The notes: a model not told the origin generated them from the sequence alone. A stretch of 64,000 bases of DNA from an uncultured Candidatus Binatia bacterium (GCA_965213675.1 OZ243916.1:3008001-3072000), one strand, 5' to 3'; shown: positions 1,070-36,257, counted from the stretch's first letter. Made by a program: numbers and translations.

Positions 1070-2131
1070 TCAGGCGTTGACGCCCTCCAGCTTGAGGTCG
1101 TAGAGCTTCAGCACGTTCTCGCGCACCACCTTGCGGAAGATGTCCGCAGGCAGGTGCCCCAGCTCGTCGGTGATGACTTGGCGCGAATGCGGCCAGGTGG
1201 ACGCCGCGTGCGGGTAGTCGTTGGACCACATGCAGGTCTCGCTGCCCCACCAGTCCAGCAGCCGGCCGCCGGTGGGGTCGCTGAAGAAGGTGGCGTAGAA
1301 CTGCTCGTTGCAGTACTCGCTGGGAAGCTTCTTCATGTGCGGCAGCGGCGCCTTGGTGGCGTGGCGCTTGAAGTACTTGTCCCACTCGTGGAGGTAGAAC
1401 GGGATCCATGAGATCTCGTTCTCCACGTACACGAACTTGAGGTCCGGATAGTTGGACATGGGGCCGCCGAAGACCAGCTCGAACAGGGTGTTGGCGGCGT
1501 CCGCCAGCTTCTGGTTGACGGTCATGCGGTAGACGTCCAGGCCTTCCCTGTCGTACCGGCTGTAGTTGAACCCCGTCAGGATGTGCAGGTTGACGGGCAT
1601 CTTGAGGTCCTGCGCGGCCTCCCAGAACGGGTTGTAGTGGTCACTGGTGAAGGGAAGGTGATCCGGCGGCACCTGCCAGATGAGGCAGCCCACGAGCCCG
1701 GCCTTCTTGCAGCGCTCCAGTTCCTTGATGGCATTGTCGATGTTGTAGAGCGAGATCGACGGCACGCCCACGAGCTTGTGGGGGTGCACCTTGCAGTAGT
1801 CGATGAGCCAGTCGTTTGCGAGCTCGAAGCAGGCTTCCTGAAGCTCCGCGTCCTCCAGGGCGAACAGGCGGAGGCCCAGGGTCGGGTACAGCACCTCGGC
1901 GGATACTCCGTCCACTGCCATCTCCTCGACCCGCGCCTTGGGATCGTGGCCGCCCGGCTTCTCGCCGATGGCGTTGCGCGGCGGGAACTCGGGATAGCGC
2001 CCCTTGAAGCTCTCCGGCAGATTGTTCACCCACAGGTCCGTGGGCTCCATGATGTGGGAGTCCGCGGAAACGATGATTTCGCTGGCCAGGTCCAGGTCTG
2101 TGTTTGTGTCGGTCGGCATGCTTACGCTCAA
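1070..2131 (-). CDS. Amidohydrolase_2 family protein
   Basis: SADSH, LYPT, VNLH and WSNDYPH motifs; TTG start preceded by GAGGAG (alternative ATG at 2119). Confidence 0.85.
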   Translation of the reverse strand: MSVSMPTDTNTDLDLASEIIVSADSHIMEPTDLWVNNLPESFKGRYPEFPPRNAIGEKPGGHDPKARVEEMAVDGVSAEVLYPTLGLRLFALEDAELQEACFELANDWLIDYCKVHPHKLVGVPSISLYNIDNAIKELERCKKAGLVGCLIWQVPPDHLPFTSDHYNPFWEAAQDLKMPVNLHILTGFNYSRYDREGLDVYRMTVNQKLADAANTLFELVFGGPMSNYPDLKFVYVENEISWIPFYLHEWDKYFKRHATKAPLPHMKKLPSEYCNEQFYATFFSDPTGGRLLDWWGSETCMWSNDYPHAASTWPHSRQVITDELGHLPADIFRKVVRENVLKLYDLKLEGVNA

Positions 2132-5818: not shown

Positions 5819-6850
5819 TCACAGGTTGTACAGTGCCCGCGCGTTCCCGCCGCAGATCTTGGCTTTGACCTCCGGGCTGAGCCTCGGGTCGTTGGCGACG
5901 CCGTCGATGGCCAGAAGCTCGGTGGCGCTGTCGGCGTGGCCGTAGTCGGTGCCCACCACCAAGTGGTCCTCGCCGGCGTTGTCGATGACGTAGGGAAGGT
6001 CGTCGGTGGTCTCGCAGCCGACCCATATCCGGTTCCTTGCCAGCAATTCGTTCCGGTGGCACCCCTGCTCCTTTACGTAGGGACGCTTGAACAGGTCGGT
6101 CAGGGCGTAGGGCAGCCACTGTGAGCTGACCTCCAGGAACGCCATCTTGAGTTGCGGGAATCGTTCGGGGATTCCACCCGCGACGATGGTGTGGAACGCC
6201 CCCACCACCACCAGCTTGAACTTCGAGAAGGCCACGGGCTCGTACTTGTAGTAGTCGAACAGGACGGAACTGCCGTTGGATGCGTGGATGCACACCGGCA
6301 TGTCCAGCCGGCCGCCGGCGTCGTACACTGGATAGAAAAAGGGATCGTTCAGCAGACGGTCGCCCTCCGAGCCGCGCATGTAGATGCCCACCGCGCCGTT
6401 CTCCTTGGCCAGCCGGGCTTCCTCGTATACCTGTTCCGGGCTGAGAAGCGGCGCCATGGCCACCCAGCGCAAGCGGTTGTCCGACTGTTTCCAGCACTCG
6501 CCCATCCAGCGGTTGTAGCTGCGGCACAACGCCAGCTCGATCTCCGGCCGGGGCGTGAGCGGGATTATGAAGATGGTGGGAAAGATCACCTGGACGTCCA
6601 CCCTGAGATCGTCCATGTGCCTGAGCCGCGCGGCCACGTCGCGCAGTTCGCGGGACTCCAGCGGCGTGTCCTTGCCCACGTTGCGGGTCTTGAGCCGCAG
6701 GGTTCCGTCCACCAGCCAGTACTCGTCCCCGGAGCCCGAGCCGTTGGTGGAGCCGACGACCTCGGGCCGGAACTTCCGGTCGGCGCCGTCCATGAATGCC
6801 CAGGTTTCCTCGGTCTCGAGGACGTGAGCGTCTGCGTCGATTCTGAGCAT
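5819..6850 (-). CDS. Amidohydrolase_2 family protein
   Basis: IDADAH, VIFPT, VCIH and GTDYGHAD motifs. Confidence 0.85.
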   Translation of the reverse strand: MLRIDADAHVLETEETWAFMDGADRKFRPEVVGSTNGSGSGDEYWLVDGTLRLKTRNVGKDTPLESRELRDVAARLRHMDDLRVDVQVIFPTIFIIPLTPRPEIELALCRSYNRWMGECWKQSDNRLRWVAMAPLLSPEQVYEEARLAKENGAVGIYMRGSEGDRLLNDPFFYPVYDAGGRLDMPVCIHASNGSSVLFDYYKYEPVAFSKFKLVVVGAFHTIVAGGIPERFPQLKMAFLEVSSQWLPYALTDLFKRPYVKEQGCHRNELLARNRIWVGCETTDDLPYVIDNAGEDHLVVGTDYGHADSATELLAIDGVANDPRLSPEVKAKICGGNARALYNL

Positions 6851-9034: not shown

Positions 9035-10042
9035 TCAGACTGTGCCGCGGTCGAGCCGGTAGACCCGCGCGGCGGTGTCGTGGAACAGCGCTGTTCGTTC
9101 CGCGTCGGAGTATCCCCGTGACATGATCTTGAATGCGTTCCAGATGGGTACGTAGGAGTAGGACACCCGGTCCACCGGGAAGTTGCTTTCGAACATGCAG
9201 CGGCCGGCGCCGAACTTCTCGATGCAGTGCTCGAAGTAGGGCCGCATGGCCTCGGCCAATTCGGCGGAACCGGGCTCGGGCTCGCGCATATGCCAGTCGT
9301 AGCCGGAGCGGAGGGAACCGACACCGCCCAGCTTAAGCGCCACGTTGGGGCACGACGATAGCGCCGCGATGTCCGCGCTCCAGGCCCGGAACACCTCGTC
9401 GCGCCGTCCCTTGTAGGGGCCCAGCCCCAGAGGCCCGCCGATGTGGTCGAGGATGATGGGCACGTCCGGGAAATCCCGGGCCAGCTCCACCAACTCCGGA
9501 AGCTGCGGGTGATAGAGCCAGGCGTCGAAGCTCAGCCCCAGGCGCTGCAGGCGCGCGAAGCCCTTGCGGACCTCGGGGTCCCTGAGCAGGCCCGACCGCG
9601 CCACGCTCCGGAACGAGTCCGAGGCGTCCCACATGGTGGAATAGCGGATGCCGCGCAGCCGGGTGGGGCTGGCCTCCAGGTGCGCTTCCAGGACGGCGGC
9701 CACGGCGTCGCCAAGGGTCAGGTCGGCGTAGGCTACGATAGCGGCCGCCACGGTTGCGGGCGTACCCGTGGGCGAGCTCTCGGATGCGATGCCCTCCAGG
9801 AACTCCGTCTCGCCCACCGGCTGCAACTCCGCCGGCCCTTCTTCGCGGTACATCGCCCCGCACTCCACCGCCACACTGGAGACGATGCGATGGCCGGCCG
9901 AGGCGTCGCGCAGGAAATCGTCGAGCAGGTACGGGTTGTTGGGGCGCCGCCACAGGTGGTGGTGCGGGTCGCAGATGGGGAGGTTGGGTTCCAGCGGGGC
10001 CTCGTCGGGCGTGTCTGTTGCAGGATCGGTCAATTTCGGCAC
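9035..10042 (-). CDS. Amidohydrolase family protein (lactonase-like)
   Basis: ICDPHHHLW, IILDHIGG and RCMFESNFPVD motifs. Confidence 0.85.
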   Translation of the reverse strand: MPKLTDPATDTPDEAPLEPNLPICDPHHHLWRRPNNPYLLDDFLRDASAGHRIVSSVAVECGAMYREEGPAELQPVGETEFLEGIASESSPTGTPATVAAAIVAYADLTLGDAVAAVLEAHLEASPTRLRGIRYSTMWDASDSFRSVARSGLLRDPEVRKGFARLQRLGLSFDAWLYHPQLPELVELARDFPDVPIILDHIGGPLGLGPYKGRRDEVFRAWSADIAALSSCPNVALKLGGVGSLRSGYDWHMREPEPGSAELAEAMRPYFEHCIEKFGAGRCMFESNFPVDRVSYSYVPIWNAFKIMSRGYSDAERTALFHDTAARVYRLDRGTV

Positions 10043-10105: not shown

Positions 10106-10214
10106 CCCATGGTGACGGGCAGGAGGGCGGTTTCGGTGCTCGCACTGCCCGGCCGGGTTTGGTAGACAGGGGTTTGCCTTCATCGGACGAGCCGATTCCG
10201 GCTGAGGAGGTCGC

Positions 10215-11471
10215 GTGGATTTCGAGCTGGCCCATTACCCTGTCCGGTCCCTTTCCTGGGGCGCCAAGACCGAATATCGAGAAGGCGAACTCATTGTCAA
10301 CCGCGAGGCGCTGCGCGCCGAACTGCTGGCGGAACCGCTCATTGATGACGTCGAGCTGAGCATCGTCCGGCCTGGCGAGCGCACCCGGGTGCTCCACGTG
10401 GTGGACATCGTCGAGCCGCGCTGGAAGGACCCGGAACGCGGCGGCGCGTTCCCCGGCAGCCTCGGACCGTTGTACCAGTGCGGCCTCGGCCGCACCCACG
10501 CGCTGGACGGCGTGGCCGTGGTGACGTCCGGTTCCCTGCCCCGGTCCGAGGAGGCCATCATCGACATGTGCGGCCCCGGCAGCGAGCTCAGCCGGTTCGG
10601 CCAAATGCCCGGGCTGGTGGTGCTGCCCAAGGCGCGGGACGGATCCGACCCGGGCGAGTTCGGCCTCGCGCTCATGCGCGCCGGGCTTCGCACGGCCGTC
10701 CTCCTGGCCCAGACCACGCGAGGGGTGGAGCCGGCCCGCAACGAAAGGTTCTCCCTGGAACTTGGACGCAATGCGTCGGCGGACCTGCCGCGTATCGGCT
10801 ACCTGAGCTTTTCGTACTCCCACGGCATCGGCCGCCAGAAGCTCTTCTACGGCGTGAGCACCAAGGACATGGTACCCAGCGTGGTGCATCCCAACGAGCT
10901 GCTGGACGGGGCGCTGGTGAACGACGGCTATACCAAGCCCACCAAGAACGCCACCCACGACATCCTGAACCACCCGATGATCCGGGAGCTCCACCGCCGC
11001 CACAACCGCGACCTCGTGTTCGCGGGCATGGTCATCGCCAACCACCACGCCACCTACGACGAGAAGGCGGCCACGGCGTGGCACGCGGCGCGCCTGCTCA
11101 GACACGTGGTGGCGGCCGAGGCGGTGGTCATCACCAAGGACGGCGGCGGCCAGGCGGACGTGGACCTGATGCTGGCCTGCCGGGCCTGCGAGGAAGTGGG
11201 CCTGCGCACGGTGTTGGTGGCCAAGGAGGAGTCCGGCGGCGACGGTCCGGCGTTGGTGGACGTGGCGCCCCAGGCGGACGCCATGGTGAGCGTGGGCAAC
11301 TGTCCCGAGAAGGTCCGCCTCGAAGAGTCCATGGAATGTGTCATCGGCGGCGACGCCTTTCTCGGCGCCATCCACGGGGACGTGGCCGGGACAGTGGAGA
11401 TCCCGGTCCAGAACATCATCGGCGCCATCGATCCCATCGGCGGCTCGACGCTGACGGCCCGGCCGGGGTAG
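10215..11471 (+). CDS. Glycine/sarcosine/betaine reductase component B proprotein-like subunit (GrdE/GrdG/GrdI family)
   Basis: DIVEPRWK, GRTHALDG, IIDMCGPG, VHPNELLDGA, NHPMIRELH and MVSVGN motifs; GAGGAGG RBS; adjacent to a GrdB-like gene. Confidence 0.85.
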   Translation: MDFELAHYPVRSLSWGAKTEYREGELIVNREALRAELLAEPLIDDVELSIVRPGERTRVLHVVDIVEPRWKDPERGGAFPGSLGPLYQCGLGRTHALDGVAVVTSGSLPRSEEAIIDMCGPGSELSRFGQMPGLVVLPKARDGSDPGEFGLALMRAGLRTAVLLAQTTRGVEPARNERFSLELGRNASADLPRIGYLSFSYSHGIGRQKLFYGVSTKDMVPSVVHPNELLDGALVNDGYTKPTKNATHDILNHPMIRELHRRHNRDLVFAGMVIANHHATYDEKAATAWHAARLLRHVVAAEAVVITKDGGGQADVDLMLACRACEEVGLRTVLVAKEESGGDGPALVDVAPQADAMVSVGNCPEKVRLEESMECVIGGDAFLGAIHGDVAGTVEIPVQNIIGAIDPIGGSTLTARPG

Positions 11472-11482
11472 GGAGGAGCAAG

Positions 11483-12772
11483 ATGAAACGAATCGTCCAC
11501 TACGTGAACCAGTTCTTTGCCGGTGTCGGCGGGGAGGAAGTCGCGGGTTCCCCGCCCGGCGCGCTGAAGGGCGCGGTGGGGCCGGGCAGGCTGCTGCAGA
11601 ACCTGCTGGGAGAGGGCGGCGGCATCGTCGCCACGGTTTACTGCGGCGACGACCACTTCTCCGAGAACGAGGAGGCGGCTACGGCCCGGCTGCTGGAACT
11701 CGTGAAGGCGGCCGAGCCGGACCTCCTGTTCGCGGGGCCGGCCTTCGGCTCGGGGCGCTACGGGCTGGCGTGCGCGGGGATGTGCCGGGCGGTGGGCGCC
11801 GAGTTGGGATTACCGGTGCTGACCGCCATGTCGCCGTCCAACCCGGGGGCGGACACGATCCGGAGCGAGGTCCCGGTGGTCGGGACCGGGGAGTCGTCGG
11901 GCGACATGCGCGCCGCCATCGAGGCTGCCGCGGCCGTGATCGTGAAGATGCTCGCTGGCGAAATCGTGGCTCCAGGCAGCGACGAGAGCCTGATCCCCCG
12001 CGGCGGCCGCTGGAACACGCGGGTGTCCAAGCGCGCGGCGGAGCGGGCCGTGGACCTGCTGCTGGCCAAGGTCGCGGGCGGACCGATGGAGACGGAGATC
12101 CCGCTGCCGGCATTCCAGGAGGTGGCGCCGGCGCCGGGCATCCGCGACCTCGGCCACGCCAAGATCGCGCTGGTCACCACCGGCGGCCTGGTCCCCCGTG
12201 GCAACCCCGATGGCATCAAATCGTACCTGTCCACGCACTTTGGCGCTTACGACATGACGGAACGGGAACGCCTCACCGGGGAGGAATTCGAATCGGTGCA
12301 CGGCGGGTTCTTCACCGCCATGGTGAACGAGGATCCCAACCGGCTGATTCCTTTGGACGCGCTGCGCCAGGCGGTGCGCGCGGGCTCGGTGGGCGCGCTG
12401 CACGAGCGCTTCTATTCCACCACGGGCAACGGCACTCCTGTCGAGACCGCCGCGGATATGGCGCGGGACATCGCCGCATCGCTGGAGGAGGACCGTGTCG
12501 ACGGCGTCCTCCTTACCTCCGCGTGAGGCACCTGCACTCGCTGCGGCGCAGCGATGGCCAAGGAACTGGAACGAAGCGGCATCCCGACGGTGCATGTGAC
12601 CAATCTCGTCTCGGTGTCGGAGAACACCGGCGCCAAGCGGATCATGTCGGGACGGGCCATTCCCCACGTGTTCGGCGACCCGTCTCTGGAGGCGGATGAA
12701 GAGCGGCGGCTGCGGCAACGGCTGGTGGAGCAGGCGCTGGACCTGCTGCGGGCGCAGGAGGGCGTGTCGTGA
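11483..12772 (+). CDS. grdB: Glycine/sarcosine/betaine reductase selenoprotein B (GrdB/GrdF/GrdH family), 429 aa with Sec at codon 348
   Basis: MKRIVHYVNQFFAGVGGEE start; in-frame TGA at 12524-12526 inside LLTSA-U-GTCTRCGAAMAKELERSGIP (UxxCxxC motif); ORF track splits it in two. Confidence 0.9.
12538..12554 (+). promoter_or_regulatory. Putative bacterial SECIS hairpin
   Basis: TCGCTGC-GGC-GCAGCGA stem-loop begins 11 nt after the UGA; loop starts with G, 18 nt from the UGA. Confidence 0.7.
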
Positions 12773-12886
12773 GGGGCCGCCCCTGATCCGCTCTGGCTTC
12801 CCGCCCCTGAGCGAAGCCGCAGGCACGCCTCCGCCGGATTGACGGGAGGGGCTGACCCGGCCGAGGCACCTCGAGCCAATCCATCC

Positions 12887-12915
12887 TTGACATGCGCGCC
12901 GTAAAGTCGGTTAAT
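12887..12915 (+). promoter_or_regulatory. Putative sigma70 promoter for tctC
   Basis: TTGACA-N17-GTTAAT upstream of an AGGAGG RBS. Confidence 0.45.
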
Positions 12916-12945
12916 CGCCCCATCTAACCCAAGAGGAGGCAACTC

Positions 12946-13992
12946 ATGGTTCGGAGAATTCTCGTTCTGATGGCAGGGCTGATGCTGCTGGCGGGCCCGG
13001 CATGGGCCGACTCGGTGGCGGATTTCTACAAGGGCAAGACCATTCGTATCGTCGTGGGCTATGGTCCCGGAGGCACCACCGACCTGACCACCCGGCTGAT
13101 CGCGCCGGTGCTGCACAAGTACATTCCGGGAAGTCCGCGGATCGTGGTCCAGAACAAGCCGGGCGGCGGCAGCATGCTGGCGGCCAATACGGTGTTCAAC
13201 AACGAGCGCAGGGACGGCACCGTGATCGCGGGCGTCAGCAGCAGTCTCGTGTTGAAGCAGGCTCGCGGCGTGAAGGGGATCCGGTTCGACGGCAAGGATT
13301 TCAATTGGGTCGCGAGCGCCTTCCGGGCCAACTCCGCGTGCGCGGTGCGGGCGGATGCGGGCGTGAAGACGTGGGCGGATGCGGTGAATACCAAGAAACA
13401 GCTCATCATGTCGAGCTTCGACAAGGGCGGCTTGTCCCACCTGGAGCCGATCATCTTAAACGCGGTTTTCGGCAGCAACTTCAAGGCCGTCACGGGATTT
13501 CCCAGCGGCGGCGCGCAGCGCCTGGCGGTGAAGAACGGCGAGGTGAACGGCTTCTGCACGACCTTTCAGACGATGCAGAGCACCGAGATCGCCATGTTCG
13601 AGGGTGAGGCGAAATGCTGCCGGGTGCTCATCATCGCCGGTGAGGAGAAGGCCGACCATCCCCTGCTGAAGGGCGTGCCCGCGGCTGAGGCGCTGGCCAA
13701 GGAACTTGGCAAGAGCGCGGAAGAGTTGGCCATGCTGAGGGCGATGAACGCCACCAACCAGATCAGCATTGTCCACACGCTTCCGCCCGGAGTGCCGGCG
13801 GACCGCGTCGAGGCCATGCGCGACGCCTTTGCCAAGGCGTACAGCGACCCGCAGGTCCAGGCCTTGGCGAAGAAGCAGAATCGGAATCTGCAGCCAAGGC
13901 GCGGCGACAACGTGGCCGATGTCGTCAACGACTTGCTCGGCACTCCCAAGTCCGTGATGGACCGGATCAAGGCGCTCATCGCGAAGGGCTGA
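12946..13992 (+). CDS. tctC: Tripartite tricarboxylate transporter substrate-binding protein (Bug/TctC family)
   Basis: Signal peptide, FYKGKTIRIVVGYGPGGTTD, VQNKPGGGS and LPPGVPADRV motifs. Confidence 0.8.
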   Translation: MVRRILVLMAGLMLLAGPAWADSVADFYKGKTIRIVVGYGPGGTTDLTTRLIAPVLHKYIPGSPRIVVQNKPGGGSMLAANTVFNNERRDGTVIAGVSSSLVLKQARGVKGIRFDGKDFNWVASAFRANSACAVRADAGVKTWADAVNTKKQLIMSSFDKGGLSHLEPIILNAVFGSNFKAVTGFPSGGAQRLAVKNGEVNGFCTTFQTMQSTEIAMFEGEAKCCRVLIIAGEEKADHPLLKGVPAAEALAKELGKSAEELAMLRAMNATNQISIVHTLPPGVPADRVEAMRDAFAKAYSDPQVQALAKKQNRNLQPRRGDNVADVVNDLLGTPKSVMDRIKALIAKG

Positions 13993-14217
13993 GTCCGGCG
14001 GCGTGCGCCGGCCGATGGATCGTGTGCGGAACCGGGGTCCGGTTCGCGTTTGCCGCTGGCGGACGCGGGCCGGTTTCCCGATCCTCCGAGTTCAGTCTCC
14101 AACCGGAAGACGGTTGCACCAGCCGGTCCCGTTGGGAGTCTGCAGGAGCCTGTTGGTCTTCGATGCCGCTTCGCTACGCTCAGGACGAACGGTGTAGGCT
14201 GACACTCTCATAGCACC

Positions 14218-15723
14218 ATGCTCGAAGCCTTAGTTACGGGTCTGCTCCAAGTATTCAATCAGACGACGTTCCTGCTGATGCTGGTGGGCATCTTCCTGGG
14301 CTTCATCGTCGGGATTCTGCCCGGCATCGGCAGCCCCGGGGCGGTGGCTCTCATGCTGCCGTTCATCTTCACCATGGACCCGGTGCAGGCGTTTGCCTTC
14401 CTGCTCGGGATGTACGCGGTCACCGGCACCACCGGCGACATTACCTCGATCCTGTTCGGCGTGCCCGGGGAGGTGGTGTCCACGGCCACCATCATCGACG
14501 GGCACCCCATGGCCAAGAAAGGCGAGGCCGGCCGCGCCCTGGGTGCGGCGCTCATGAGTTCGCTCGTGGGGGCCATCGTGGGCGCCTTCTCCCTGGCCGC
14601 GGCCATCCCCATCGTCACCCCGCTGGTACTGTCCTTCAAATCGCCGGAATTCTTCTCCCTGGCGATCCTGGGTATCTGTTTTCTCGCGGCGTTGAGCGGC
14701 GACAACAAGCTCAAGGGAGTGCTGGCCGGCGGGCTCGGACTGGTGCTCTCCACCGTCGGCCTGGATTACCAGGAGAACATCGAGCGCTACACGTTCGGGT
14801 TGGTGAACCTGTGGGAAGGGGTCGGGCTCATCGCCGCGGCCGTGGGATTGTTCGCGGTGCCCGAGATCGTGGAACTTTGGGTCAAGGGTTCCAGCATCGC
14901 GGAGGCCAAGGTGGGCAAGCTCGGCGGCGTGTGGCAGGGTGTCAAGGACACCTTCACGCACATCGGCATCACCGTCCGCTGCAGCATGATCGGCACGTTC
15001 TTCGGGCTTGTGCCCGGAGTGAGTGCCGCCCTGTCCCAGTGGGTGTCCTACGCCCACGCGGTCCAGAGCACCCGGGACCGCAGCGGCTTCGGCAAGGGAG
15101 ATGTCCGCGGGGTGCTGGGGCCCGGCGCGGCCAACAACTCCGGTATCGGCGCGGCCATGATTCCCACCGTGGCGTTCGGCGTGCCCGGCAGCGCCACCAC
15201 CGCCATCCTGCTGGGCGCCTTCATCATCCAGGGGTTGCAACCCGGGCCGAAGATGCTCACCGAGCATCTGTCCCTGACCTTCTCGTTCGTCTGGCTCATC
15301 GTCATCTCCAACATCATCACGGTGACGCTGTGCCTGCTTTTCCTGAACCAGTTGGCCAAGATCACCCAGATTCGCGGGTCGCTGCTGATTCCCGCCCTGT
15401 TCATGCTCATTTTCCTGGCGGGCTTCGCCAACACCAATTCCTATTTCGCCATGACCACTACGCTCGTGTTCGGCGTTGCCGGCGTGGTCATGGTGAACCG
15501 CGGCTGGCCTCGTCCGCCGCTGGTGCTGGGTCTGGTGCTGGGGTCGCTGGTGGAGCGGAACCTGTTCATCTCGTACGAGATCTACGGGCTCTGGTTCCTG
15601 ACGCGACCCATCGTCATGGTGACCTTCGGGGTTGCCCTGGTGGTGATCTTCCTTCCCGGACTGCAGGACTGGATGGCCAAGCGCGCCAAGCCCGACGAGG
15701 AAATCGTTGCGCAATCGGACTGA
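14218..15723 (+). CDS. tctA: Tripartite tricarboxylate transporter large permease
   Basis: GILPGIG, ILFGVPG, DGHPMAKKGEAGRAL and AANNS...IPTVAFGVPGS motifs. Confidence 0.9.
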   Translation: MLEALVTGLLQVFNQTTFLLMLVGIFLGFIVGILPGIGSPGAVALMLPFIFTMDPVQAFAFLLGMYAVTGTTGDITSILFGVPGEVVSTATIIDGHPMAKKGEAGRALGAALMSSLVGAIVGAFSLAAAIPIVTPLVLSFKSPEFFSLAILGICFLAALSGDNKLKGVLAGGLGLVLSTVGLDYQENIERYTFGLVNLWEGVGLIAAAVGLFAVPEIVELWVKGSSIAEAKVGKLGGVWQGVKDTFTHIGITVRCSMIGTFFGLVPGVSAALSQWVSYAHAVQSTRDRSGFGKGDVRGVLGPGAANNSGIGAAMIPTVAFGVPGSATTAILLGAFIIQGLQPGPKMLTEHLSLTFSFVWLIVISNIITVTLCLLFLNQLAKITQIRGSLLIPALFMLIFLAGFANTNSYFAMTTTLVFGVAGVVMVNRGWPRPPLVLGLVLGSLVERNLFISYEIYGLWFLTRPIVMVTFGVALVVIFLPGLQDWMAKRAKPDEEIVAQSD

Positions 15724-16252
15724 CATCACCATCGGTGCCTTGCTGGTGGTGCTGCTCTCGTGGGCGGTGTGGGAGGCCCAGGACTGGCCGGCGCGCACCC
15801 GGTTCTTCCCCTTGGCCATCGGTTATCCGGTGCTGGTGATGGCGGTGATGCATCTGGCCTACAGTCTGTGGCTCGGACTGCGGCCGCCCGTGCCCGCGAG
15901 CGCGGCGGAAACGAGCCAGGCGGCGATGGATGAGGGTCCTCCCATGGATCCGGCCCTCGTGCGCCGGCGCACCCTCGAGATATCCGTCTGGGCCGTGCTC
16001 TTCGCGCTGGGCCTGTGGCTGCTGGGGTTCAAGGTGGGCGGGCTCGTCATTCCACCGATCTTCCTGCGCTTCCAGGCGCGCGAGACCTGGCGGACGAGCG
16101 TCCTGTACGGCTTCGTCGTCTATCTGTTCTTCTGGGGCGGTCTGGAGCGAGCCCTGTCGTTCCCCCTGCCTCCCGGCCGCATCGCCTACTCCCTGGGGCT
16201 CTATTCCTTCGATTCCTATCTGACGGATCCGCTCCTCAACCTGTTCCGGTAA
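15707..16252 (+). CDS. tctB: Tripartite tricarboxylate transporter small permease
   Basis: About 4-5 TM segments, ARTRFFP and LPPG motifs; overlaps the tctA end. Confidence 0.75.
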   Translation: MRNRTDITIGALLVVLLSWAVWEAQDWPARTRFFPLAIGYPVLVMAVMHLAYSLWLGLRPPVPASAAETSQAAMDEGPPMDPALVRRRTLEISVWAVLFALGLWLLGFKVGGLVIPPIFLRFQARETWRTSVLYGFVVYLFFWGGLERALSFPLPPGRIAYSLGLYSFDSYLTDPLLNLFR

Positions 16253-19475: not shown

Positions 19476-19710
19476 CGAGAGGCAGAGAAAGGCCAGTTTC
19501 GGGCGGATTTGAAGAGAATATTGGTAGTATTGGACGAAAATCCAACCGGAAATGGACCCATTCCGCTGCCTCGCAGTAGATTCTTGATAAACCCCACAAG
19601 CTCCCGGCTCTCAGTCCGTGTCGTTCACGGACTTCTTCCCCGCGGGCGCTTCCACTCTACCGGTTCCGGACGGGAAACGGGTTGAACACCATGAACAGGA
19701 GAAACCGTCG

Positions 19711-21774
19711 ATGAACCGCCTGGCCAACGAAACGAGCCCGTATCTGTTGCAGCACGCCGGCAATCCGGTGGACTGGTACCCTTGGGGCGAGGAAGCCTTC
19801 GCCAAGGCGCGGGCGGAAGACAAGCCCGTCCTCCTGAGCATCGGCTACTCGGCGTGCCACTGGTGTCACGTGATGGAGCACGAGTCGTTCGAGAACGACG
19901 CCATTGCGGCGCTGATGAACGAGAGCTTCGTCAGCATCAAGGTGGATCGGGAAGAGCGTCCCGACCTGGACGAGATCTACATGAACGCCGTGCAGATGCT
20001 GACCCGTCGGGGCGGCTGGCCCATGACAGTGTTTCTCACTCCCGAGGGGAAGCCTTTCTTCGGCGGCACCTACTACCCGCCCGAGGACCGGCAGGGCATG
20101 CCCGGCTTCCCGCGCGTACTCCAGGCGGTGGTGGAAGCCTACCGGAACAAACCTCAGGACGTGGCCCGGAACGTCGACCAGATCGTCGCCGCGCTGGATC
20201 GCATGAGCGTGCTCAGCGAGACGGGGCGGGAGATGAGCGTGGAGGTGGTGACGGGCGGGGCCGAGGGACTCACGTCCGCCTACGACGCCGCCCATGGCGG
20301 TTTCGGCCGTGCGCCCAAGTTCCCCAACGCCGGCGTGTTCAACCTGTTCCTCCGCGCCTACCGCCTGTCGGGCAACCAGCGCTACCTGGAGATGATCACC
20401 GAGACCCTCCGGAAGATGGCCGAGGGCGGCATGTACGATCAGCTTGGCGGCGGTTTTCACCGCTACTCGGTGGACGACAAGTGGCTCGTGCCCCACTTCG
20501 AGAAAATGCTCTACGACAACGGTCAGCTCGCGCAGGTCTACGCCGAGGCCTACCGCATCACGGGGGACGGCTTCTTCAAGCGCATCGTCGAGGAAACCGT
20601 GGAATACGTGCTGCGCGAGATGTGCCAGCCGGAGGGGGGATTCTACTCCGCCCAGGACGCGGACAGTGAGGGGGAAGAAGGCAAGTTCTTCGTGTGGACG
20701 CGCGCAGATGTCCTGGACCTTCTTGGCAAAGAGCGCGGCGACGTGTTCTGCCGGGTCTATGACGTGAGCGACGTTGGCAACTTCGAGGGCAAGAACATCC
20801 TCCATCCGGTGCTGACCGTCGAGCAGGCGGCCCGATACTTTCGCAAGGAGGAACGGGAAATCGAGGCCATCCTGGCGAAGTGCCGGGCGGCACTGTTCGA
20901 GGAGCGAGAGAAGCGGGTCAAGCCGTTCCGGGACGAAAAGGTTGTTCTTTCGTGGAACGGCTTGATGCTTTCGGGCGTGGCCGCAGCCTACGCCATCACC
21001 GGCGACGCGCGCATCCGCGAGGCGGGCGCGCGCACGGTGGATTTCATCTGCACGCGCATGTTCGAAAACGGCCTGCTGCGGCACACCTGGAAGGACGGTC
21101 AGGCCAAGCTGCTGGGCTATCTCGACGACTACGCATTTTTCATCGCCGGCCTGTTGGACTTCTTCGAGGCGACCTTCGAGCCCGAGCTGCTGGAACGCTC
21201 CAAGGCATTGGTGCGAACCATGCTGGATGAGTTCTGGGATGACGAGAACGGCGGGTTCTTCTACACGGGGAAGTCCCACGAACAGCTCATCAGCCGGACC
21301 AAACCCGGGTTCGACAGCTCCATTCCCTCGGGCAACTCGGTGGCGGTCATGGACCTGCTGCGGCTCCACCACTACACAGGGGACCCGGACTTGCTCGACC
21401 GCGCTGGAAAGACCCTGCGCCTGCACTACGACGCCATGGCCAAGGAACCCTTCGGCCTGTCCAACATGCTCGGGGCGCTGGACTACCATCTCTCGCGGCC
21501 CGCGGAGATCGTGCTGGTGGCGGCCAGGGAGGATGAGGAGGCGCGCTCGCTGGCAGGCGAGATCCAGCAATGCTACCTGCCCAACAAGACGTTTCAGTGG
21601 GTGAGCCCCGATGCCCGGCTGGAGGAGATTTCGCCGCTGCTGGAAGGGAAAACGCAGATCGGCGGCAAGCCCACGGTTTACGTGTGCCGCAACTTTACCT
21701 GCGCGCCGCCGGTGACGGACTGGGAGGGGCTGAAACCGCTGCTGGAAGAGGAAACCGGGGGACATGACGGCTAG
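19711..21774 (+). CDS. Thioredoxin domain-containing protein (YyaL/SSP411, DUF255)
   Basis: [29 protein letters not shown] and [11 protein letters not shown] motifs; AGGAG RBS. Confidence 0.92.
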
Positions 21775-24084: not shown

Positions 24085-24248
24085 GGCGTTAAGTGGGGTA
24101 TTTAACACAGTTTTTCAGGATAGGCGAATAAGCGAAACGGGCGAGCGGGCGCCGTCCCCGGAGGTGAGGCGGACGCGCGATTCAGCGGGATGGGATATAA
24201 TGGTGCCGGATGCGGGGGGAACGGACTCGGGCATCGGAGTCGTTGCGT

Positions 24249-25616
24249 ATGTATCGGGCGGATACCATTGCGGCAGTAGCGACGCCCCCGGGCGAAGGGG
24301 GAGTGGCCATGGTGCGTTTGAGCGGACCGGAGGCCAAACGCATCGCACTGGAGGTCCTTGTCGCGAAGGATACCCGTTGGGAATCGCACCGCCTGTACCA
24401 CGGGAGGGTACGGGACCCCGGCAGCGGCGCCGTGGTGGATGAGGTGATGTTTGCTTTCCTTGGGGAACCCCGGAGCTATACGGGCGAGGACAGCGTCGAG
24501 ATCTACTGCCACGGGAGCCCATTCGTGGTGCGGCAAGTGCTCGGAGTGACGCTCGCGCGCGGCGCGCGGCACGCGGAACCGGGGGAGTTCACCAAGAGAG
24601 CCTATTTGAACGGGCGATTGGATTTGCCTCAAGCCGAAGCGGTGTTGGATTTGATCCGCTCACGCACGGACAAGGCAGCCGGGGTCGCCTTGGGCCAGAT
24701 GGAAGGTGGCCTTTCGCAGGAGGTTCAGGCTCTTCGCGAACAATTGGTGGATGTTCTCGTGCAGGTGGAGGCGGCCATTGATTTCCCGGAGGAAGAGATC
24801 GAGCTGCTTCAGCGTGAGGCGTTGGGACGGAAGGTAGCCGGGGTGGCCAAACGGGTTGCCAGCCTTGCCGGCAGTTACGAATGGGGCCGTTTGATTCGTG
24901 AAGGCGTGCGCGTGTGCATCGTGGGCCGGCCCAACGTCGGCAAGTCGAGTTTGCTGAACGCGCTGCTGGGGGAGGATCGAGCCATCGTTACGGCCACGCC
25001 AGGCACGACGCGTGACTTCATCGAGGAGACGGTGAACGTCAACGGCCTGCCCGTGGTGCTGTGGGACACGGCAGGCATCCGGCACGGAACCCAAGGCGTG
25101 GAACAACTTGGCATCGACGTTACCCTCAGGAGGCTGTCCGAGAGTCAGGGGTGCATGCTGGTCCTCGACGGGTCGGCGCCACTTGGCCCCGAGGATATGA
25201 ATGTGATGGATCTCGTGCGCCATATGGCGGGCCTCGTGGTCGTCAACAAGTCCGATCTGGAAGAGTGCATTGAGCGCTCCGCGGTGACCCAGCGTCTGCC
25301 GCACCTGCGCCAAGTGGCGGTGTCGGCATTGACGGGGGACGGGCTGGATGCTTTGAGAGGTGCGTTGCGGGATTGCTTTCTGGAGTCAGTGGAGGAGCCG
25401 GAGGTCGTCGTGACGAACGTGCGTCACAAGGCGGCCCTGGACCGGGCGAAGGAGAGTCTCGTGGACGTGCATCGCGCCATCGCGCAGGGCCTTCCCGCCG
25501 ATATCGTGGCAGTGGATCTGCAAGGGGCGCGTGACAGCCTGGAGGAGATTGTCGGCACCGTCACCAATGAGGATATCCTTGACCGTATCTTCTCGCAGTT
25601 CTGTATCGGCAAGTGA
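24249..25616 (+). CDS. mnmE: tRNA modification GTPase MnmE
   Basis: DTIAAVATPPG, GRPNVGKSS, PGTTRD, DTAG and C-terminal FCIGK. Confidence 0.95.
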   Translation: MYRADTIAAVATPPGEGGVAMVRLSGPEAKRIALEVLVAKDTRWESHRLYHGRVRDPGSGAVVDEVMFAFLGEPRSYTGEDSVEIYCHGSPFVVRQVLGVTLARGARHAEPGEFTKRAYLNGRLDLPQAEAVLDLIRSRTDKAAGVALGQMEGGLSQEVQALREQLVDVLVQVEAAIDFPEEEIELLQREALGRKVAGVAKRVASLAGSYEWGRLIREGVRVCIVGRPNVGKSSLLNALLGEDRAIVTATPGTTRDFIEETVNVNGLPVVLWDTAGIRHGTQGVEQLGIDVTLRRLSESQGCMLVLDGSAPLGPEDMNVMDLVRHMAGLVVVNKSDLEECIERSAVTQRLPHLRQVAVSALTGDGLDALRGALRDCFLESVEEPEVVVTNVRHKAALDRAKESLVDVHRAIAQGLPADIVAVDLQGARDSLEEIVGTVTNEDILDRIFSQFCIGK

Positions 25617-25685
25617 CGGCCTCGCAAGTTCCGGAAGCGGGTCGCGCAGTTGGTCACAATCGCGCATCAGTCCATTAAGCAGGGG

Positions 25686-27584
25686 ATGTTTCACGTGAAA
25701 CAATCGTACCGAGGATCCGACAGGATCTACGACGTTATCGTTGTCGGCGCGGGGCATGCAGGAATCGAGGCCGCGCTGGTGGCGGCCCGTATGGGATTCG
25801 ACACCCTGATGTTGACGTTGAACCTGGACCATATCGGGCAGATGTCCTGTAATCCTGCCATCGGGGGAATCGGAAAAGGTCACTTGGTCAAGGAAATCGA
25901 CGCCCTTGGCGGTGAGATGGCACGGGCCATCGACGAGACCGGAATACAGTTCCGCGTATTGAACACCAAGAAGGGACCGGCGGTGAGGGCTTCTCGCGCC
26001 CAGGCCGACAAGGCCCAGTACCGCCAGCGGATGAAGCGCGTCGTAGAGCGGTGCGAGAATCTAAGCCTCAAGCAAGCGAGCGTGGAGCGGTTGTTGCACC
26101 ACGGTGGCAGAGTTGGCGGGGTGGAAACACAGATGGGGGAGGTGTTTGAAGCCAGGAAGACGATACTGACCACAGGTACGTTTCTTCAAGGCCTCATCCA
26201 TGTTGGGGACCGCAACTATTCGGGCGGTCGCGCCGGCGACTTCGCGGCCCAAGGACTCAGCAAGTCCCTCAGCGACCTGGGCTTGCGCCTCGGTCGCCTC
26301 AAGACCGGCACTTGTCCCCGGTTACATGCCGATTCCATCGACTATTCCAGGTTGAATGTCCAGCATGGGGACGAGAATCCGGTGCCGTTCTCCTTCGGCA
26401 CACCCCGCATAGACCAGCGGCAGATCCCTTGCCACGTCACCTATACCAGTCCAGACACCCACGACATCATTCGGGGCGCCATTCATCGTTCACCCATGTA
26501 CTCGGGAGCGATCCAGAGCCGAGGGCCACGCTACTGTCCCTCCATTGAGGACAAGGTCGTACGCTTCCCGGACAAGCAGCGTCACCAGATCTTTCTGGAA
26601 CCCGAAGGTCGCGATACCGTGGAGGTCTACCCCAACGGGATCTCCACCAGTCTACCCCTCGACACGCAGGTGGAAATGGTGCACAGCATCCAGGGCCTCG
26701 AGAACGCGGAGATCATGCGGCCCGGCTATGCCATCGAGTACGATTACGTGGAGCCTACGCAACTGAAGTCGAGCCTGGAAACCAAGGGCCTTGCCGATCT
26801 TTTCCTTGCCGGCCAGATCAATGGGACCACCGGTTACGAGGAGGCCGCGAGCCAGGGCCTCATGGCGGGAATCAACGCCTGCTTGAGCCTCCGAGGCGAG
26901 GAACCGCTCGTGCTGTCCCGCGACCAGGCGTACTTGGGTGTCCTGATCGATGACCTCGTCACCAAGGGGACTGACGGGGAGCCCTACCGGATGTTCACCT
27001 CCAGGGCCGAGTACCGCCTGCTGCTGCGCGAGGACAACGCCGATCTCCGGCTCACCGAGCTGGGCCATCGCATCGGTTCCGTCACGCCGGCGGCCCATGA
27101 TCGCACCGTTCAGAAGAAGGCAAGGATCGCACACTGGAGCGTGAAACTGGAGAATTTCCGCGTCAGTCCAACACCCGTTGTACAAGCGCAACTGAACGGC
27201 CTCGGCACCGCGCCCATTCGCAACAGCACGTCCTTGGCGCAATTGCTCCGCCGCCCAGAGATCACGTTCGCCGATCTTGGAGCGTTCTGCCACGAGTTGA
27301 CGGAGGTCCCCGCCGATGTGGCGCTCCAGGTGGAGGTGTCCGCAAAGTACAGGGGTTATGTTGATCGCCAGACGCAGGGTTTGAAACGCTTTCAGAAGCT
27401 GGAAAACGTGGTCCTGCCGGAGGATATCGATTACGGAACCATCGATGGGCTCTCACAAGAGATCAAGGAGAAGCTCACGCGCGTGCGGCCGCGTTCGTTG
27501 GGGCAAGCCTATCGGATCGCGGGAGTGACGCCGGCCGCGATCTCCGTGCTCTCGTTGTATGTGTACAAGTTGAAGGCAAGCTGA
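25686..27584 (+). CDS. mnmG: tRNA uridine-5-carboxymethylaminomethyl modification enzyme MnmG
   Basis: VGAGHAG, MSCNPAIGG, GPRYCPSIEDK and GQINGTTGYEEAA motifs; start ATG 25686 or GTG 25695. Confidence 0.95.
   Translation: MFHVKQSYRGSDRIYDVIVVGAGHAGIEAALVAARMGFDTLMLTLNLDHIGQMSCNPAIGGIGKGHLVKEIDALGGEMARAIDETGIQFRVLNTKKGPAVRASRAQADKAQYRQRMKRVVERCENLSLKQASVERLLHHGGRVGGVETQMGEVFEARKTILTTGTFLQGLIHVGDRNYSGGRAGDFAAQGLSKSLSDLGLRLGRLKTGTCPRLHADSIDYSRLNVQHGDENPVPFSFGTPRIDQRQIPCHVTYTSPDTHDIIRGAIHRSPMYSGAIQSRGPRYCPSIEDKVVRFPDKQRHQIFLEPEGRDTVEVYPNGISTSLPLDTQVEMVHSIQGLENAEIMRPGYAIEYDYVEPTQLKSSLETKGLADLFLAGQINGTTGYEEAASQGLMAGINACLSLRGEEPLVLSRDQAYLGVLIDDLVTKGTDGEPYRMFTSRAEYRLLLREDNADLRLTELGHRIGSVTPAAHDRTVQKKARIAHWSVKLENFRVSPTPVVQAQLNGLGTAPIRNSTSLAQLLRRPEITFADLGAFCHELTEVPADVALQVEVSAKYRGYVDRQTQGLKRFQKLENVVLPEDIDYGTIDGLSQEIKEKLTRVRPRSLGQAYRIAGVTPAAISVLSLYVYKLKAS
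25687..25702. promoter_or_regulatory. parS centromere site
   Basis: Perfect palindrome TGTTTCACGTGAAACA, the canonical parS consensus. Confidence 0.92.
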
Positions 27585-27709
27585 GGCCCGAGCCTACCAG
27601 GTCGCTTCCAGAACTGGTGTGGCGTTTCGACAAAATGTGGACCTGGAGGGTTGTAAATGACTGCGTCCGGCTCGTGGTTACCCACGGCCGTTGCCAGGTA
27701 ATCTGACCC

Positions 27710-28375
27710 GTGTCGCCGAGAAGCTTCCCGAGCAACGACCAACTCATGATCGAAGGAGCGAGATCCTTCGATCTTGAGTTGTCACCTCACCAGGTTGCGG
27801 CCTTTGCCAGTTATCGAGGCCTCCTTTCCGTGTGGGGTGGTCGGCTCAACCTCACGGCCATTTTTGAAGGCTCAATGGTCGCACGGTTGCATTTTCTGGA
27901 CTCGCTTGCGGTGGCGCCCCATTTGACCCCGACGGGCCCCGTGATGGACATCGGCAGCGGCGCTGGTTTCCCTGGGATTCCCATCAAACTCGTCTGTCCG
28001 GACAAAGCGGTCTACCTCGTGGAGCCGCGCCGCCGGCGTGCGAATTTCCTCCGGCACGTGATTCGCGAACTGCGGTTGACCGGGGTCCATGTGATCGAGA
28101 GCCGCCTTGAGGAGTTGCCGCGGGAAGACGTCCCGCCAATGATGGAGACGGTTACCCGCGGGTTCTCCGACATCCGTGGGTTCATCAAGACGAGTGGGAA
28201 GTTGCTCGACCGTGGCGGTCAATGCCTTCTGATGCAAGGTCCCAAGGGCCCTGCGACATTGGAGGACCTGCAGGGTTGGATCTCCCGATGCGGTTTCGTG
28301 GAGCACAGAACCCTTCAGTTCTCGTTACCCTTCGGGACTGAGCAACGAACAGTGATTGCTCTGAGCAAGGCGTGA
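27710..28375 (+). CDS. rsmG: 16S rRNA m7G527 methyltransferase RsmG
   Basis: LNLTAI, HFLDSL and DIGSGAGFPGIP motifs. Confidence 0.92.
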   Translation: MSPRSFPSNDQLMIEGARSFDLELSPHQVAAFASYRGLLSVWGGRLNLTAIFEGSMVARLHFLDSLAVAPHLTPTGPVMDIGSGAGFPGIPIKLVCPDKAVYLVEPRRRRANFLRHVIRELRLTGVHVIESRLEELPREDVPPMMETVTRGFSDIRGFIKTSGKLLDRGGQCLLMQGPKGPATLEDLQGWISRCGFVEHRTLQFSLPFGTEQRTVIALSKA

Positions 28376-28478
28376 CGGGATGGCGCTTGGCGGGGAGCCG
28401 ATGCCAGGAGCTTGCGCCCACGGGATTCACGGATGCAAATCCGTTTTCATCTTTCCCTTCGACGGCTCTGTTTCGTCA

Positions 28479-28494
28479 TGTTTCACGTGAAACA
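28479..28494. promoter_or_regulatory. parS centromere site
   Basis: TGTTTCACGTGAAACA, 80 bp upstream of parA. Confidence 0.93.
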
Positions 28495-28574
28495 GGCCCC
28501 TTCCCTTCAGTGAGCCCGCGTGTTACCATACCCTGTGCCCGGTCGTCACCTAACCTATTGAATATTAAAGAGTT

Positions 28575-30337: not shown

Positions 30338-30621
30338 CCCCTTTCGCAGCTGGCAGTTCAACGAGGTTGCCTGCGTCCGACTGCATGGGCAGACCCGCCC
30401 AAAGCGACCCGCTTGGGCCGGGTTTCGTGTAACTAGTGGAATTATCGGGGCTTTTACGTCGTCCGAACTGTGGTCGCGGCGGCATGCCATCGGCCAATCT
30501 GAGAGGGAACGACGGGCAAAGGCGCTGCCCTGACGACATTCGATTTACGCCATCTCGGAACTCGGACAGCCCGGATTTCCGGGGTGCTTCCGCCGTTCGT
30601 TTTCGGCACCCAACTCGCGGC

Positions 30622-31589: not shown

Positions 31590-31676
31590 CGCCGTGCCGG
31601 GAGTCTGGCCGTAATCCGGCGGCGCTTCGAAAAGGGCATGGCGCCGCCACCGAGAGAATCCCAGGATCTACATCCG

Positions 31677-32213: not shown

Positions 32214-32233
32214 ACAGTCCAAGGGAGCCAGCC

Positions 32234-34600: not shown

Positions 34601-34727
34601 CGCGTGGAGACGGGTTTCAAGCCCGTGCGCGTGACGACCGTGAACGCAGTACAAACCCGAATGCTTTGATTGAAGGACCACTCGACCAAGGGAACCGCGG
34701 ATGGTCGCGCCTTGACCAAGCCGGTAA

Positions 34728-36254
<1,527 letters not shown>

Positions 36255-36257
36255 ATC

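Follow-up and report, generated by a model that had tools for sequence, protein, structure and literature searches.

A predicted selenocysteine-containing GrdEB module beside a tripartite tricarboxylate transporter in Candidatus Binatia

Glycine-reductase-type selenoenzymes are textbook enzymes of the Stickland fermentation of strict anaerobes, and to our knowledge only four or five of their substrates are known (glycine, sarcosine, betaine, D-proline, and fluoroacetate). What would a module of this kind do in an uncultured Candidatus Binatia bacterium, and with which partners would it work? The question arises from a 64,000-nt stretch of DNA (GCA_965213675.1 OZ243916.1:3008001-3072000; here called the window, G+C ~65%), in which a grdE-like gene and a grdB-like gene with an in-frame UGA are followed by tctC, tctA, and tctB, the genes of a tripartite tricarboxylate transporter (TTT). 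A sequence-only reading of this locus had suggested that the GrdEB pair, which corresponds to the substrate-specific protein B of glycine reductase, may act without proteins A and C on a noncanonical carboxylate imported by the TTT. We found all five genes on the plus strand in the layout that this reading had described (Table 1), and our analysis indicates that the pair probably represents a lineage-restricted, non-pyruvoyl protein B subfamily with a different substrate and not a stand-alone enzyme. Throughout, positions without a contig or locus label refer to the window; G, L, and C denote genomes, loci, and contigs, with G000 being the source genome of the window.

Selenocysteine codon and conservation of the gene pair

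The in-frame TGA of the grdB-like gene corresponds to residue 348, within the motif TSA-U-GTCTRCGAAMA, and the nucleotides that follow it (12527-12564) match the Rfam selenocysteine insertion sequence (SECIS) model SECIS_4 (RF01990; 47.9 bits, gathering score of 38, E = 5e-9), with the hairpin being visible in the computed fold. The reading frame runs for 81 codons past the TGA, and this C-terminal stretch is conserved. A search of species-representative genomes with GrdB as the query yielded 17 related loci, all of them in metagenome-assembled genomes (MAGs) whose titles read Candidatus Binatia or whose labels are "Thermodesulfobacteriota," "Deltaproteobacteria," or "Syntrophobacterales"; closed chromosomes of 4-5.7 Mb are frequent among them. 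In all 17 loci, the frame crosses the TGA into the conserved C-terminal stretch, and the core motif U-GT-C-TR-C (UxxCxxC) is invariant in the window, in the 17 orthologs, and in loci L057 and L062. Because the SECIS_4 match is accompanied by a frame that continues over the TGA in 17 of 17 loci, we consider the UGA, on sequence grounds, to be a real selenocysteine (Sec) codon. For the paralogous GrdB and GrdA proteins of the same genome (L005-L007, see below), no Rfam SECIS match was obtained at the gathering level, and their Sec codons are assigned from reading frame and motifs only.

The window GrdB is 80-90% identical to its 17 relatives, and the order GrdE-GrdB-TctC-TctA-TctB is unchanged in every one of these loci. 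An enoyl-CoA hydratase gene lies further left in 15 of the 17. Since the right flank past tctB (thiD onward) is kept in 3 loci only and is different in 14, the right edge of the conserved block falls at the end of tctB. All six genes compared are under purifying selection, with dN/dS values of 0.19 for grdE, 0.20 for grdB, 0.25 for tctC, and 0.09 for tctA. The values of 0.19-0.20, together with the invariant Sec motif, argue that grdE and grdB are functional. Outside Binatia, the closest homologue is found at locus L056 (GrdE 65% and GrdB 62% identity, same site motifs). No PDB chain was found to be sequence-related to GrdE or GrdB. In addition, a 95%-identical partial grdE copy (residues 1-192) is present at the end of a small contig of G000 (C18:2-577), which is probably derived from a second strain or is part of the 8% contamination of the bin.

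Substrate class of the module

Two broad models place the window GrdB in the GrdB/GrdF/GrdH/PrdB superfamily (TIGR01918, 482.9 bits against 65.45; PF07355, 413.7 against 22). The models for individual types, in contrast, were all missed: the glycine equivalog of GrdB (TIGR01917, 442.8 against a cut-off of 602.2), the sarcosine model of GrdF (NF040794, 482.4 against 800), the betaine model of GrdH (NF040795, 412 against 775), and the PrdB model (78.1 against 300). The same holds for the GrdE-like protein with the GrdG sarcosine model (NF040793, 235.3 against 780), the PrdA model (26.7 against 700; PrdA/PrdB are TIGR04480 and TIGR04483), and the FarE model (NF053623, 151.7 against 675). Among 55 full-length metagenome GrdB proteins scanned in the same way, 13 passed the glycine equivalog and none reached the GrdF or GrdH cut-off. 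Ten hits, three of which JGI names "betaine reductase," all scored lowest or nearly lowest on the GrdH model, and NCBIfam does not classify the JGI-named ones as GrdH.

These scores agree with a quick GrdB phylogeny by maximum likelihood (65 rows, midpoint root only), for which near-duplicates and 10 of the 17 orthologs from Binatia had been removed. By Shimodaira-Hasegawa-like approximate likelihood ratio (SH-aLRT) support, the window protein and nine orthologs form a clade (100) with L056 as its sister (99), apart from a 16-row clade (99) that contains all 13 glycine-labelled rows. The window GrdB is thus outside the glycine clade and nested in no characterised clade of this phylogeny, which the sequence-only reading had proposed as a check. 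The methods section of PMC9751293, in its available text, gives a GrdB motif, GPxF[NF]AGRYG ... AHGGxD[QTAP] ... RV[IL]PxD ... TxGNxTxV, and also a motif for GrdF. The window clade fails three of six sub-motifs of the former (GPAFGSGRYG; VHGGFFT for AHGGxD[QTAP]; RLIPLD). This motif passes 7 of the 65 rows, namely 6 of the 13 glycine-labelled ones and L119, and none of the window clade, while the GrdF motif passes 0 of 65.

The non-selenium subunit points in the same direction. The canonical pyruvoyl-forming site of GrdE, SGNCVSAC (seen, e.g., in P0166 of an alignment of 137 GrdE-like proteins), is represented by VNDGY-TKPTKNATHDI in the window, in all 17 orthologs, and in L057, and by VNDGY-SKPT in L056. 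Of the two Cys columns, which hold Cys in 8 and 21 rows of the alignment, one has Y and the other P in the window protein, and SGNC is found in 10 of 10 site-spanning GrdE proteins that adjoin a glycine-labelled GrdB. Two other GrdE proteins of this genome (L006 and L007 type) also have no pyruvoyl-site Cys. By inference, the window GrdE would carry no pyruvoyl group and would not bind its substrate as a Schiff base, which makes glycine or sarcosine an unlikely substrate. A leaving group that needs no imine seems more likely from these sequences, as in a quaternary ammonium or sulfonium betaine or in a halo-, sulfo-, or otherwise activated acetate.

These features bear on two alternatives. The first is that the module is an ordinary glycine or sarcosine protein B, its divergent look being due to phylogenetic distance and high G+C. 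In its favour, the window GrdB matches both the GrdB and the GrdF model over the full length (443 and 482 bits) and retains UxxCxxC, the TxGNxTxV sub-motif, and the N-terminal motifs; however, the scores lie well under the cut-offs, the three failing sub-motifs are those of the substrate region, the position outside the glycine clade is strongly supported, and the pyruvoyl-forming Cys is absent here and present in all 10 glycine-labelled partners. We regard this explanation as highly improbable.

The second alternative is a divergent betaine-type (quaternary amine) reductase, i.e., a functional GrdH/GrdI that would act on glycine betaine or a compound much like it and set free trimethylamine or a similar amine. 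According to the available text of PMC10838667, FarE and the betaine subunit GrdI are without these cysteines and are not pro-proteins, as we would predict for the window GrdE. Moreover, the Asp of the glycine-type HGGxD is exchanged for Phe-Phe (VHGGFFT), which might suit a cation-pi pocket. On the other hand, GrdH scores lowest among the three specific models, no BCCT or OpuD-type carrier is encoded nearby, and the neighbouring transporter is a TTT, a family whose known ligands are carboxylate anions. A betaine-type enzyme therefore appears rather unlikely to us.

Collectively, the missed equivalog and exception cut-offs, the separate clade, the failing motifs, and the absent Cys bear out the earlier suggestion of a noncanonical substrate, which is probably neither glycine, sarcosine, nor betaine. 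The window type may not be a special case. GrdE forms its own cluster at 50% identity, with the next clusters at 43-46%, and GrdE-like proteins fall into at least 1008 such clusters (E up to 0.001). Because most of the nearest ones have no processing Cys, uncharacterised specificities are probably common among GrdE-like proteins.

Partner proteins and product release

If the pair is a protein B, where are proteins A and C? The sequence-only reading had noted that no grdA, grdC, grdD, or sel genes are in the window; indeed, GrdA, GrdC, SelA, SelB, and SelD are encoded at other positions of the same contig. The assembly (21 contigs, 97.7% complete, 8% contamination) encodes one GrdA only, with an in-frame TGA and the motif CFVU (208.3 bits, the cut-off being 130), and one GrdC only, the beta subunit of protein C (511.5 bits against 450), immediately upstream of it. 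The grdC-grdA pair lies at C1:2427130-2429135 (L005 8131-10139), ~590 kb from the window. The selA, selB, and Sec-containing selD genes are located at C1:2713784-2718389, and tRNA-SeC genes were called at two sites, of which one is on C1 and the other on a small contig. SelD (C1:2717463-2718389) has an in-frame TGA and is a selenoprotein itself.

The genome also contains further protein B genes. A second GrdE/GrdB pair with an in-frame TGA is found at C1:~11700-14500 (L006, motif UGTSTRS) and a third at C1:~1182680-1185330 (L007, order grdB-grdE, motif UGTCSRS). A fourth GrdE-like gene (C1:2497088-2498428; L146 8088-9428), which has no GrdB partner, encodes a protein 58% identical to the L007-type GrdE and lies behind a short-chain dehydrogenase/reductase (SDR) gene. 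Among the 17 other genomes with a window-type GrdB, GrdA was found in 16 and GrdC in 16, the two being adjacent to each other, and more distant Binatia carry fused clusters (grdC-grdA-grdE-grdB in G047 and grdE-grdB-grdE-grdC-grdA in G105). The fused clusters lead us to conclude, from gene order, that the A/C pair serves B modules in the Binatia lineage. The idea of a protein B without A and C is thus not supported, given GrdA, GrdC, selA-selB-selD, and tRNA-Sec in this genome and GrdA with GrdC in 16 of 17 relatives; "orphan" describes the position of the pair only.

We consider it reasonably probable that the locus encodes a third substrate-specific protein B, in which Sec348 removes the carboxymethyl group of an X-CH2-COO- compound other than glycine and hands it on to the shared GrdA/GrdC. 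More specifically, the selenolate of Sec348 would attack the alpha-carbon of the substrate and expel X, the Se-carboxymethyl group would be transferred to the Sec of the single GrdA, and GrdA would then be processed by the single GrdC. The chemistry is deduced from that established for the family, and the substrate class and the role of the transporter are put forward in the same way. There is precedent for such an arrangement: in the available text of PMC10838667, several substrate-specific B modules feed one A/C set, and farACEB is a protein B module that stands apart from grdA/C/D, beside its own transporter, and is predicted to hand the carboxymethyl group to the shared GrdA and protein C.

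A further alternative, which follows the sequence-only reading, is an enzyme that needs neither GrdA nor GrdC. Such a self-contained GrdEB would resolve the selenoether with its own CxxC thiols, like PrdAB, and release the product directly. The distance of 590 kb to grdC-grdA, the complete UxxCxxC motif, and the presence of the module in two genomes in which no GrdA was detected (G081 and G125, both fragmented assemblies) would fit this view, as would a canonical downstream path that is incomplete anyway, with GrdD not found. However, the scores for PrdB (78 against 300) and PrdA (27 against 700) are far too low, GrdA and GrdC are present here and in 16 of 17 other module-bearing genomes, related Binatia have grdC-grdA fused with paralogous B modules, and B modules distant from A/C are a known pattern (PMC10838667, available text). 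We find a self-contained enzyme improbable.

An unexpected gap concerns GrdD. In the canonical system, acetyl phosphate is considered not to form without GrdD, the alpha subunit of protein C, which provides the thiol for the acetyl thioester and sets acetyl phosphate free. A search of this genome with model NF040747 for GrdD (cut-off of 350 bits) gave no match, and none of 121 sampled Binatia genomes reached the cut-off; the best score was 28.4 bits over model positions 112-228, a match that looks PlsX-like. In the same 121 genomes, GrdA was over the cut-off in 11 and GrdB-like genes occurred in 12. The 17 genomes that carry a window-type GrdB yielded no GrdD (E up to 1e-10), which brings the Binatia genomes searched to 138, and tblastn of this genome with two genuine GrdD proteins (586 and 536 bits), taken from the canonical grdA-grdB-grdC-grdD loci L075 and L081, gave a best E of 0.01. 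In addition, grdC is directly followed by grdA in seven of seven Binatia loci examined, and the order grdC-grdA with no grdD between or nearby also occurs in nine metagenome loci of other lineages (L059, L065, L066, L069, L071, L080, L083, L120, and L133). A gap of ~440 nt separates the two genes in L059, and L065 carries a GrdB that passes the glycine equivalog. The genome search suggested by the sequence-only reading thus recovered grdA, grdC, selA, selB, and selD and did not recover grdD; the full grdACD set with a GrdB of a characterised clade, which would have spoken against a novel route, is present only as far as grdA and grdC exist, with grdD not found and the GrdB outside the characterised clades.

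If the role of GrdD is as described above, the absence of a GrdD match means that the system of this lineage cannot end canonically, and the product may be released as acetate or acetyl-CoA. No match to acetate kinase (PF00871) was found in this genome either, a haem-copper oxidase subunit I (COX1) is encoded (494.7 bits), and an F1Fo ATP synthase is encoded in the window. Because neither GrdD nor acetate kinase was found and a haem-copper oxidase is present, the probable role of the system is catabolism or assimilation, with the acetyl-thioester converted to acetate or acetyl-CoA, and not Stickland-type ATP formation. A broader possibility is that Binatia have, beside an aerobic-type oxidase, a GrdD-independent glycine-reductase chemistry, in which three or four non-pyruvoyl B paralogs for different non-glycine compounds would share one GrdA and GrdC, GrdC would release acetyl-CoA or acetate instead of acetyl phosphate, and the window paralog would use an anionic carboxymethyl compound that the TTT takes up (for example, a sulfonium or ammonium betaine or a sulfo- or haloacetate); as a whole, we regard this extended scheme as unlikely. 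The limited literature searched yielded no account of Binatia with Grd genes or of systems that lack GrdD; PMC9999580, in its available text, states only that grdH was not detected.

With respect to reducing partners, the sequence-only reading had reported no TrxA or TrxB in the window, and we likewise found no thioredoxin or thioredoxin reductase among the scanned window open reading frames (ORFs), a scan that left out six small ORFs of 63-94 aa; no genome-wide search was made. A DUF255/Thioredoxin_7 protein adjoins the L006-type grdE (L006 12099-15491 region) and grdC in G047 (L136 14349-15848), and a full-length DUF255 protein is encoded at 19618-21774, 3.3 kb downstream of tctB. The DUF255/Thioredoxin_7 protein might be a redox partner.

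The neighbouring transporter and the wider setting

Does the TTT supply the substrate? Its three components all exceed their Pfam cut-offs, TctB and TctC marginally. TctC, with a signal-peptide-like N-terminus, is divergent; its best PDB relatives, 2dvz (E = 1e-10) and the terephthalate-binding 8hka (E = 6e-10), are too distant for naming a ligand. The grdEB-TTT order of the 17 genome loci recurs in metagenome locus L057, so the conservation of the neighbourhood, another point put forward for checking, is confirmed in these loci. We consider tctCAB the most obvious candidate for the importer of the GrdEB substrate, a tentative assignment to which we give somewhat less than even credence.

The regions upstream of the two gene groups were compared across the loci. 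The 173-nt spacer between grdB and tctC gave no terminator-like or consensus promoter call in a consensus scan (12773-12945). An alignment, however, revealed an element upstream of tctC that consists of TTGACA, a variable 8-nt spacer, and CGTAAAGTCGGTTAATCGCA, followed by a Shine-Dalgarno sequence (12887-12923). All 22 aligned sequences, three of which lack grdEB, share the same TTGACA and GGTTAATCGCA, and one or two columns between them differ in a few rows. The sequence 5' of this element is not conserved, and in the genomes without grdEB, homology to the window resumes at 12884-12886. The 18-mer of the element is unique in the genome at up to three mismatches. The block is conserved well beyond the need of a -10 box and may act as a leader element or as a promoter with an operator; no regulator gene lies nearby. 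Upstream of grdE, a second element (10138-10172) reads GCTCGCACTGC-N8-GGGTTTGGTAGACAGGGG; its core is kept, with small variations, in the window and 17 of 17 loci, the sequence further upstream varies, and its 11-mer occurs once in the window. This element may be the promoter or operator of grdEB.

Six congeners were sampled, and window-type GrdB is present in three of them (G081, G097, and G089). The other three have lost the gene pair and retain remnants: the last 170 nt of grdB in G065, ~145 nt spanning the grdE start and fused to the tctC promoter region in G029, and the grdE 5' end beside an Amidohydro_2 gene in G073, where tctCAB lies ~150 kb away. Because these remnants remain, we conclude that grdEB was deleted in the three congeners, by at least two independent events with the transporter preserved; tctCAB would accordingly have a role without grdEB as well.

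Several observations weigh against our proposal of a TTT-fed protein B working with the shared GrdA and GrdC. First, tctCAB looks like a separate transcription unit with its own invariant promoter-like element, as judged from the conserved block upstream of tctC and the variable sequence 5' of it. Second, the congeners without grdEB (G065, G029, and G073) keep orthologous tctCAB (TctA 92-95%, TctC 74-86% identity). Third, 12-23 TctA paralogs occur in each of five congeners examined (E up to 1e-30), the grdEB homologue of L056 sits between Dpp/Opp-type ABC transporter genes, for whose binding proteins NCBIfam gives only generic Dpp/Nik/Gsi-like matches, and of 80 metagenome loci with GrdB, only 2 show TTT genes in the vicinity. 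Fourth, window-ortholog dS values of 0.30-0.66 mean that synteny was compared among close relatives only, and its weight is therefore limited. Fifth, the co-occurrence with GrdA and GrdC is nondiscriminating, as the congeners without the module keep both too, and without GrdD the GrdA/GrdC processing step is not canonical. Finally, the tree held no GrdF, GrdH, PrdB, or FarB references, so that these types are excluded by hidden Markov model cut-offs and motifs alone.

It is accordingly possible that the adjacency is historical, with the transporter serving another pathway and the GrdEB substrate coming from another importer or from internal metabolism. The invariant tctC element, the strong constraint on tctCAB in the three congeners without grdEB (TctA dN/dS 0.09), the many TctA paralogs per genome, and the ABC system of L056 in place of the TTT would all be understandable in this case. 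Yet the two gene groups are never separated where a GrdB ortholog exists (17 of 17 loci and L057), the right flank being different in 14 of the 17, and no terminator was called in the spacer. An unrelated GrdB lineage, on metagenome contig L092 (45% G+C), likewise has TctC and TctA nearby. We hold a historical adjacency to be a serious possibility, albeit one that we would not favour, and this judgement is independent of those on the other alternatives. As for the sequence-only reading, its link between module and TTT stands as a conserved order and is weakened by the closeness of the relatives, by the promoter-like element of tctC, and by the intact tctCAB of the three congeners, while its caution that tctC may have its own promoter agrees with the promoter-like element found in 22 of 22 sequences.

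The arrangement on L092 (592-9350) comprises grdE, a TctA-like gene, a second grdE, a Sec-grdB, tctC, and a metallo-beta-lactamase-fold gene and represents a second, independent Grd-TTT neighbourhood. Repeats were also observed within the block. A dispersed palindromic repeat of the miniature inverted-repeat transposable element (MITE) or repetitive extragenic palindromic (REP) type, with the core ...GCTACGCTCAGGACGAACGG..., occupies part of the tctC-tctA spacer and matches 11 other genome sites; we do not count this repeat as part of the module function. A 64-aa ORF at 14003-14197 was rejected as a gene; it has no Pfam family, and the spacer contains this dispersed repeat. Larger repeat copies lie in the grdE-grdB spacer of L031 (7644-8003) and L032 (7514-8012), and a different palindromic repeat lies in that of L024 (7670-8000) and L025 (7680-8000), with the genes unbroken in all four.

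Table 1. Features of the grdEB-tctCAB locus (window positions)
Feature	Position	Strand	Evidence and remarks
Amidohydro_2 gene	9035..10042	-	PF04909, 138.6 bits; 172 nt upstream of and divergent from grdE
Conserved element upstream of grdE	10138..10172	+	Alignment of ortholog loci
grdE-like	10215..11471	+	418 aa; PF09338, 324.9 bits
grdB-like, predicted Sec-containing	11483..12772	+	429 aa; PF07355, 413.7 bits; start 11 nt past grdE
Predicted Sec codon UGA and SECIS hairpin	12524..12564	+	UGA 12524-12526; hairpin 12527-12564, Rfam RF01990
Promoter-like element upstream of tctC	12887..12923	+	Alignment, 22 sequences
tctC, periplasmic solute-binding protein, TTT family	12946..13992	+	348 aa; PF03401, 30.7 bits against a cut-off of 27 (marginal)
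Short dispersed repeat copy, tctC-tctA spacer	14158..14192		11 further genome sites match
tctA, large membrane subunit of TTT	14218..15723	+	501 aa; PF01970, 406 bits against 28.9
tctB, small membrane subunit of TTT	15707..16252	+	181 aa; PF07331, 31.4 bits against 29.1 (marginal); overlaps tctA by 17 nt

The Amidohydro_2 gene upstream of grdE adjoins it in 16 of the 17 related loci, the 17th ending at a contig edge, and is kept in G065 and G073 despite the loss of grdEB. Among NCBIfam models, its product matches L-fucono-1,5-lactonase best (75 bits, the cut-off being 400), and among PDB entries 4dlf (E = 9e-12), which is too distant for naming a ligand; from sequence comparison, the protein appears to be a distant relative of cog3618-type lactonases. 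Amidohydro_2 genes (PF04909) are unusually frequent in the window (1070-2131, 5819-6850, and 9035-10042) and also occur near two other GrdE loci (L007 14662-16089 and L146 15698-16780). Elsewhere in the window (24210-30210, 30436-36668, 48241-53346, and 54880-58100), we found mnmE, mnmG, rsmG, parA, parB, the F1Fo ATP synthase genes, gyrB, gyrA, rnpA, yidC, and jag. As this is the usual origin-proximal gene set, the window probably lies near the replication origin. A 1927-aa eukaryote-like repeat protein with leucine-rich repeats and a Calx-beta domain is encoded at 42240-48023.

How does the module compare with known systems? It shares with the protein B of glycine reductase (Peptoclostridium acidaminophilum and Clostridium sticklandii) the families PF09338 and PF07355, the order grdE-grdB, the UxxCxxC Sec with the SECIS right after the UGA, and a Sec-GrdA and GrdC in the genome. 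It differs in a GrdE without processing cysteines, in the failed glycine equivalog and motif, and in its separate clade; moreover, the module is not clustered with grdA/C or trx genes, GrdD and acetate kinase were not found, and the host has a haem-copper oxidase. With farACEB of Cloacibacillus porcorum MFA1 (PMC10838667, available text), it has in common a stand-alone B pair, a GrdE-type subunit predicted to be unprocessed, and a transporter of its own. FarB is reported there to be without the CxxC that is present in the window GrdB. In addition, the window locus has no radical-SAM partner, its transporter is a TTT and not an antiporter, its host belongs to the aerobe-type Binatia and not to the anaerobic Synergistota, and the FarE model score is low (152 against 675). 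In betaine reductase GrdH/GrdI, the non-selenium subunit is, according to the same text, likewise unprocessed, and binding of the substrate does not call for a Schiff base, both as we would predict for the window pair; the window GrdB, in contrast, scores only 412 against 775 on the GrdH model and has no betaine carrier nearby. D-proline reductase PrdA/PrdB is a homologous selenoenzyme that works without GrdA and GrdC; the window proteins score far under the Prd cut-offs. PrdA is, furthermore, a pyruvoyl enzyme. Relative to known TTT systems (TctCBA; Bug, TphC, and AdpC binding proteins), the same three components are present, in the order C-A-B and with a very divergent TctC.

If active, the module would widen both the chemistry of the family (the C-X bonds cut by selenium enzymes) and its physiology (catabolism without substrate-level phosphorylation). 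GrdE, GrdB, GrdA, GrdC, and TctC form a concrete, testable gene set. In the extended GrdD-independent scheme, which we regard as unlikely, the system would constitute an undescribed selenium-dependent route of C-N, C-S, or C-X cleavage that serves carbon assimilation and not fermentation.

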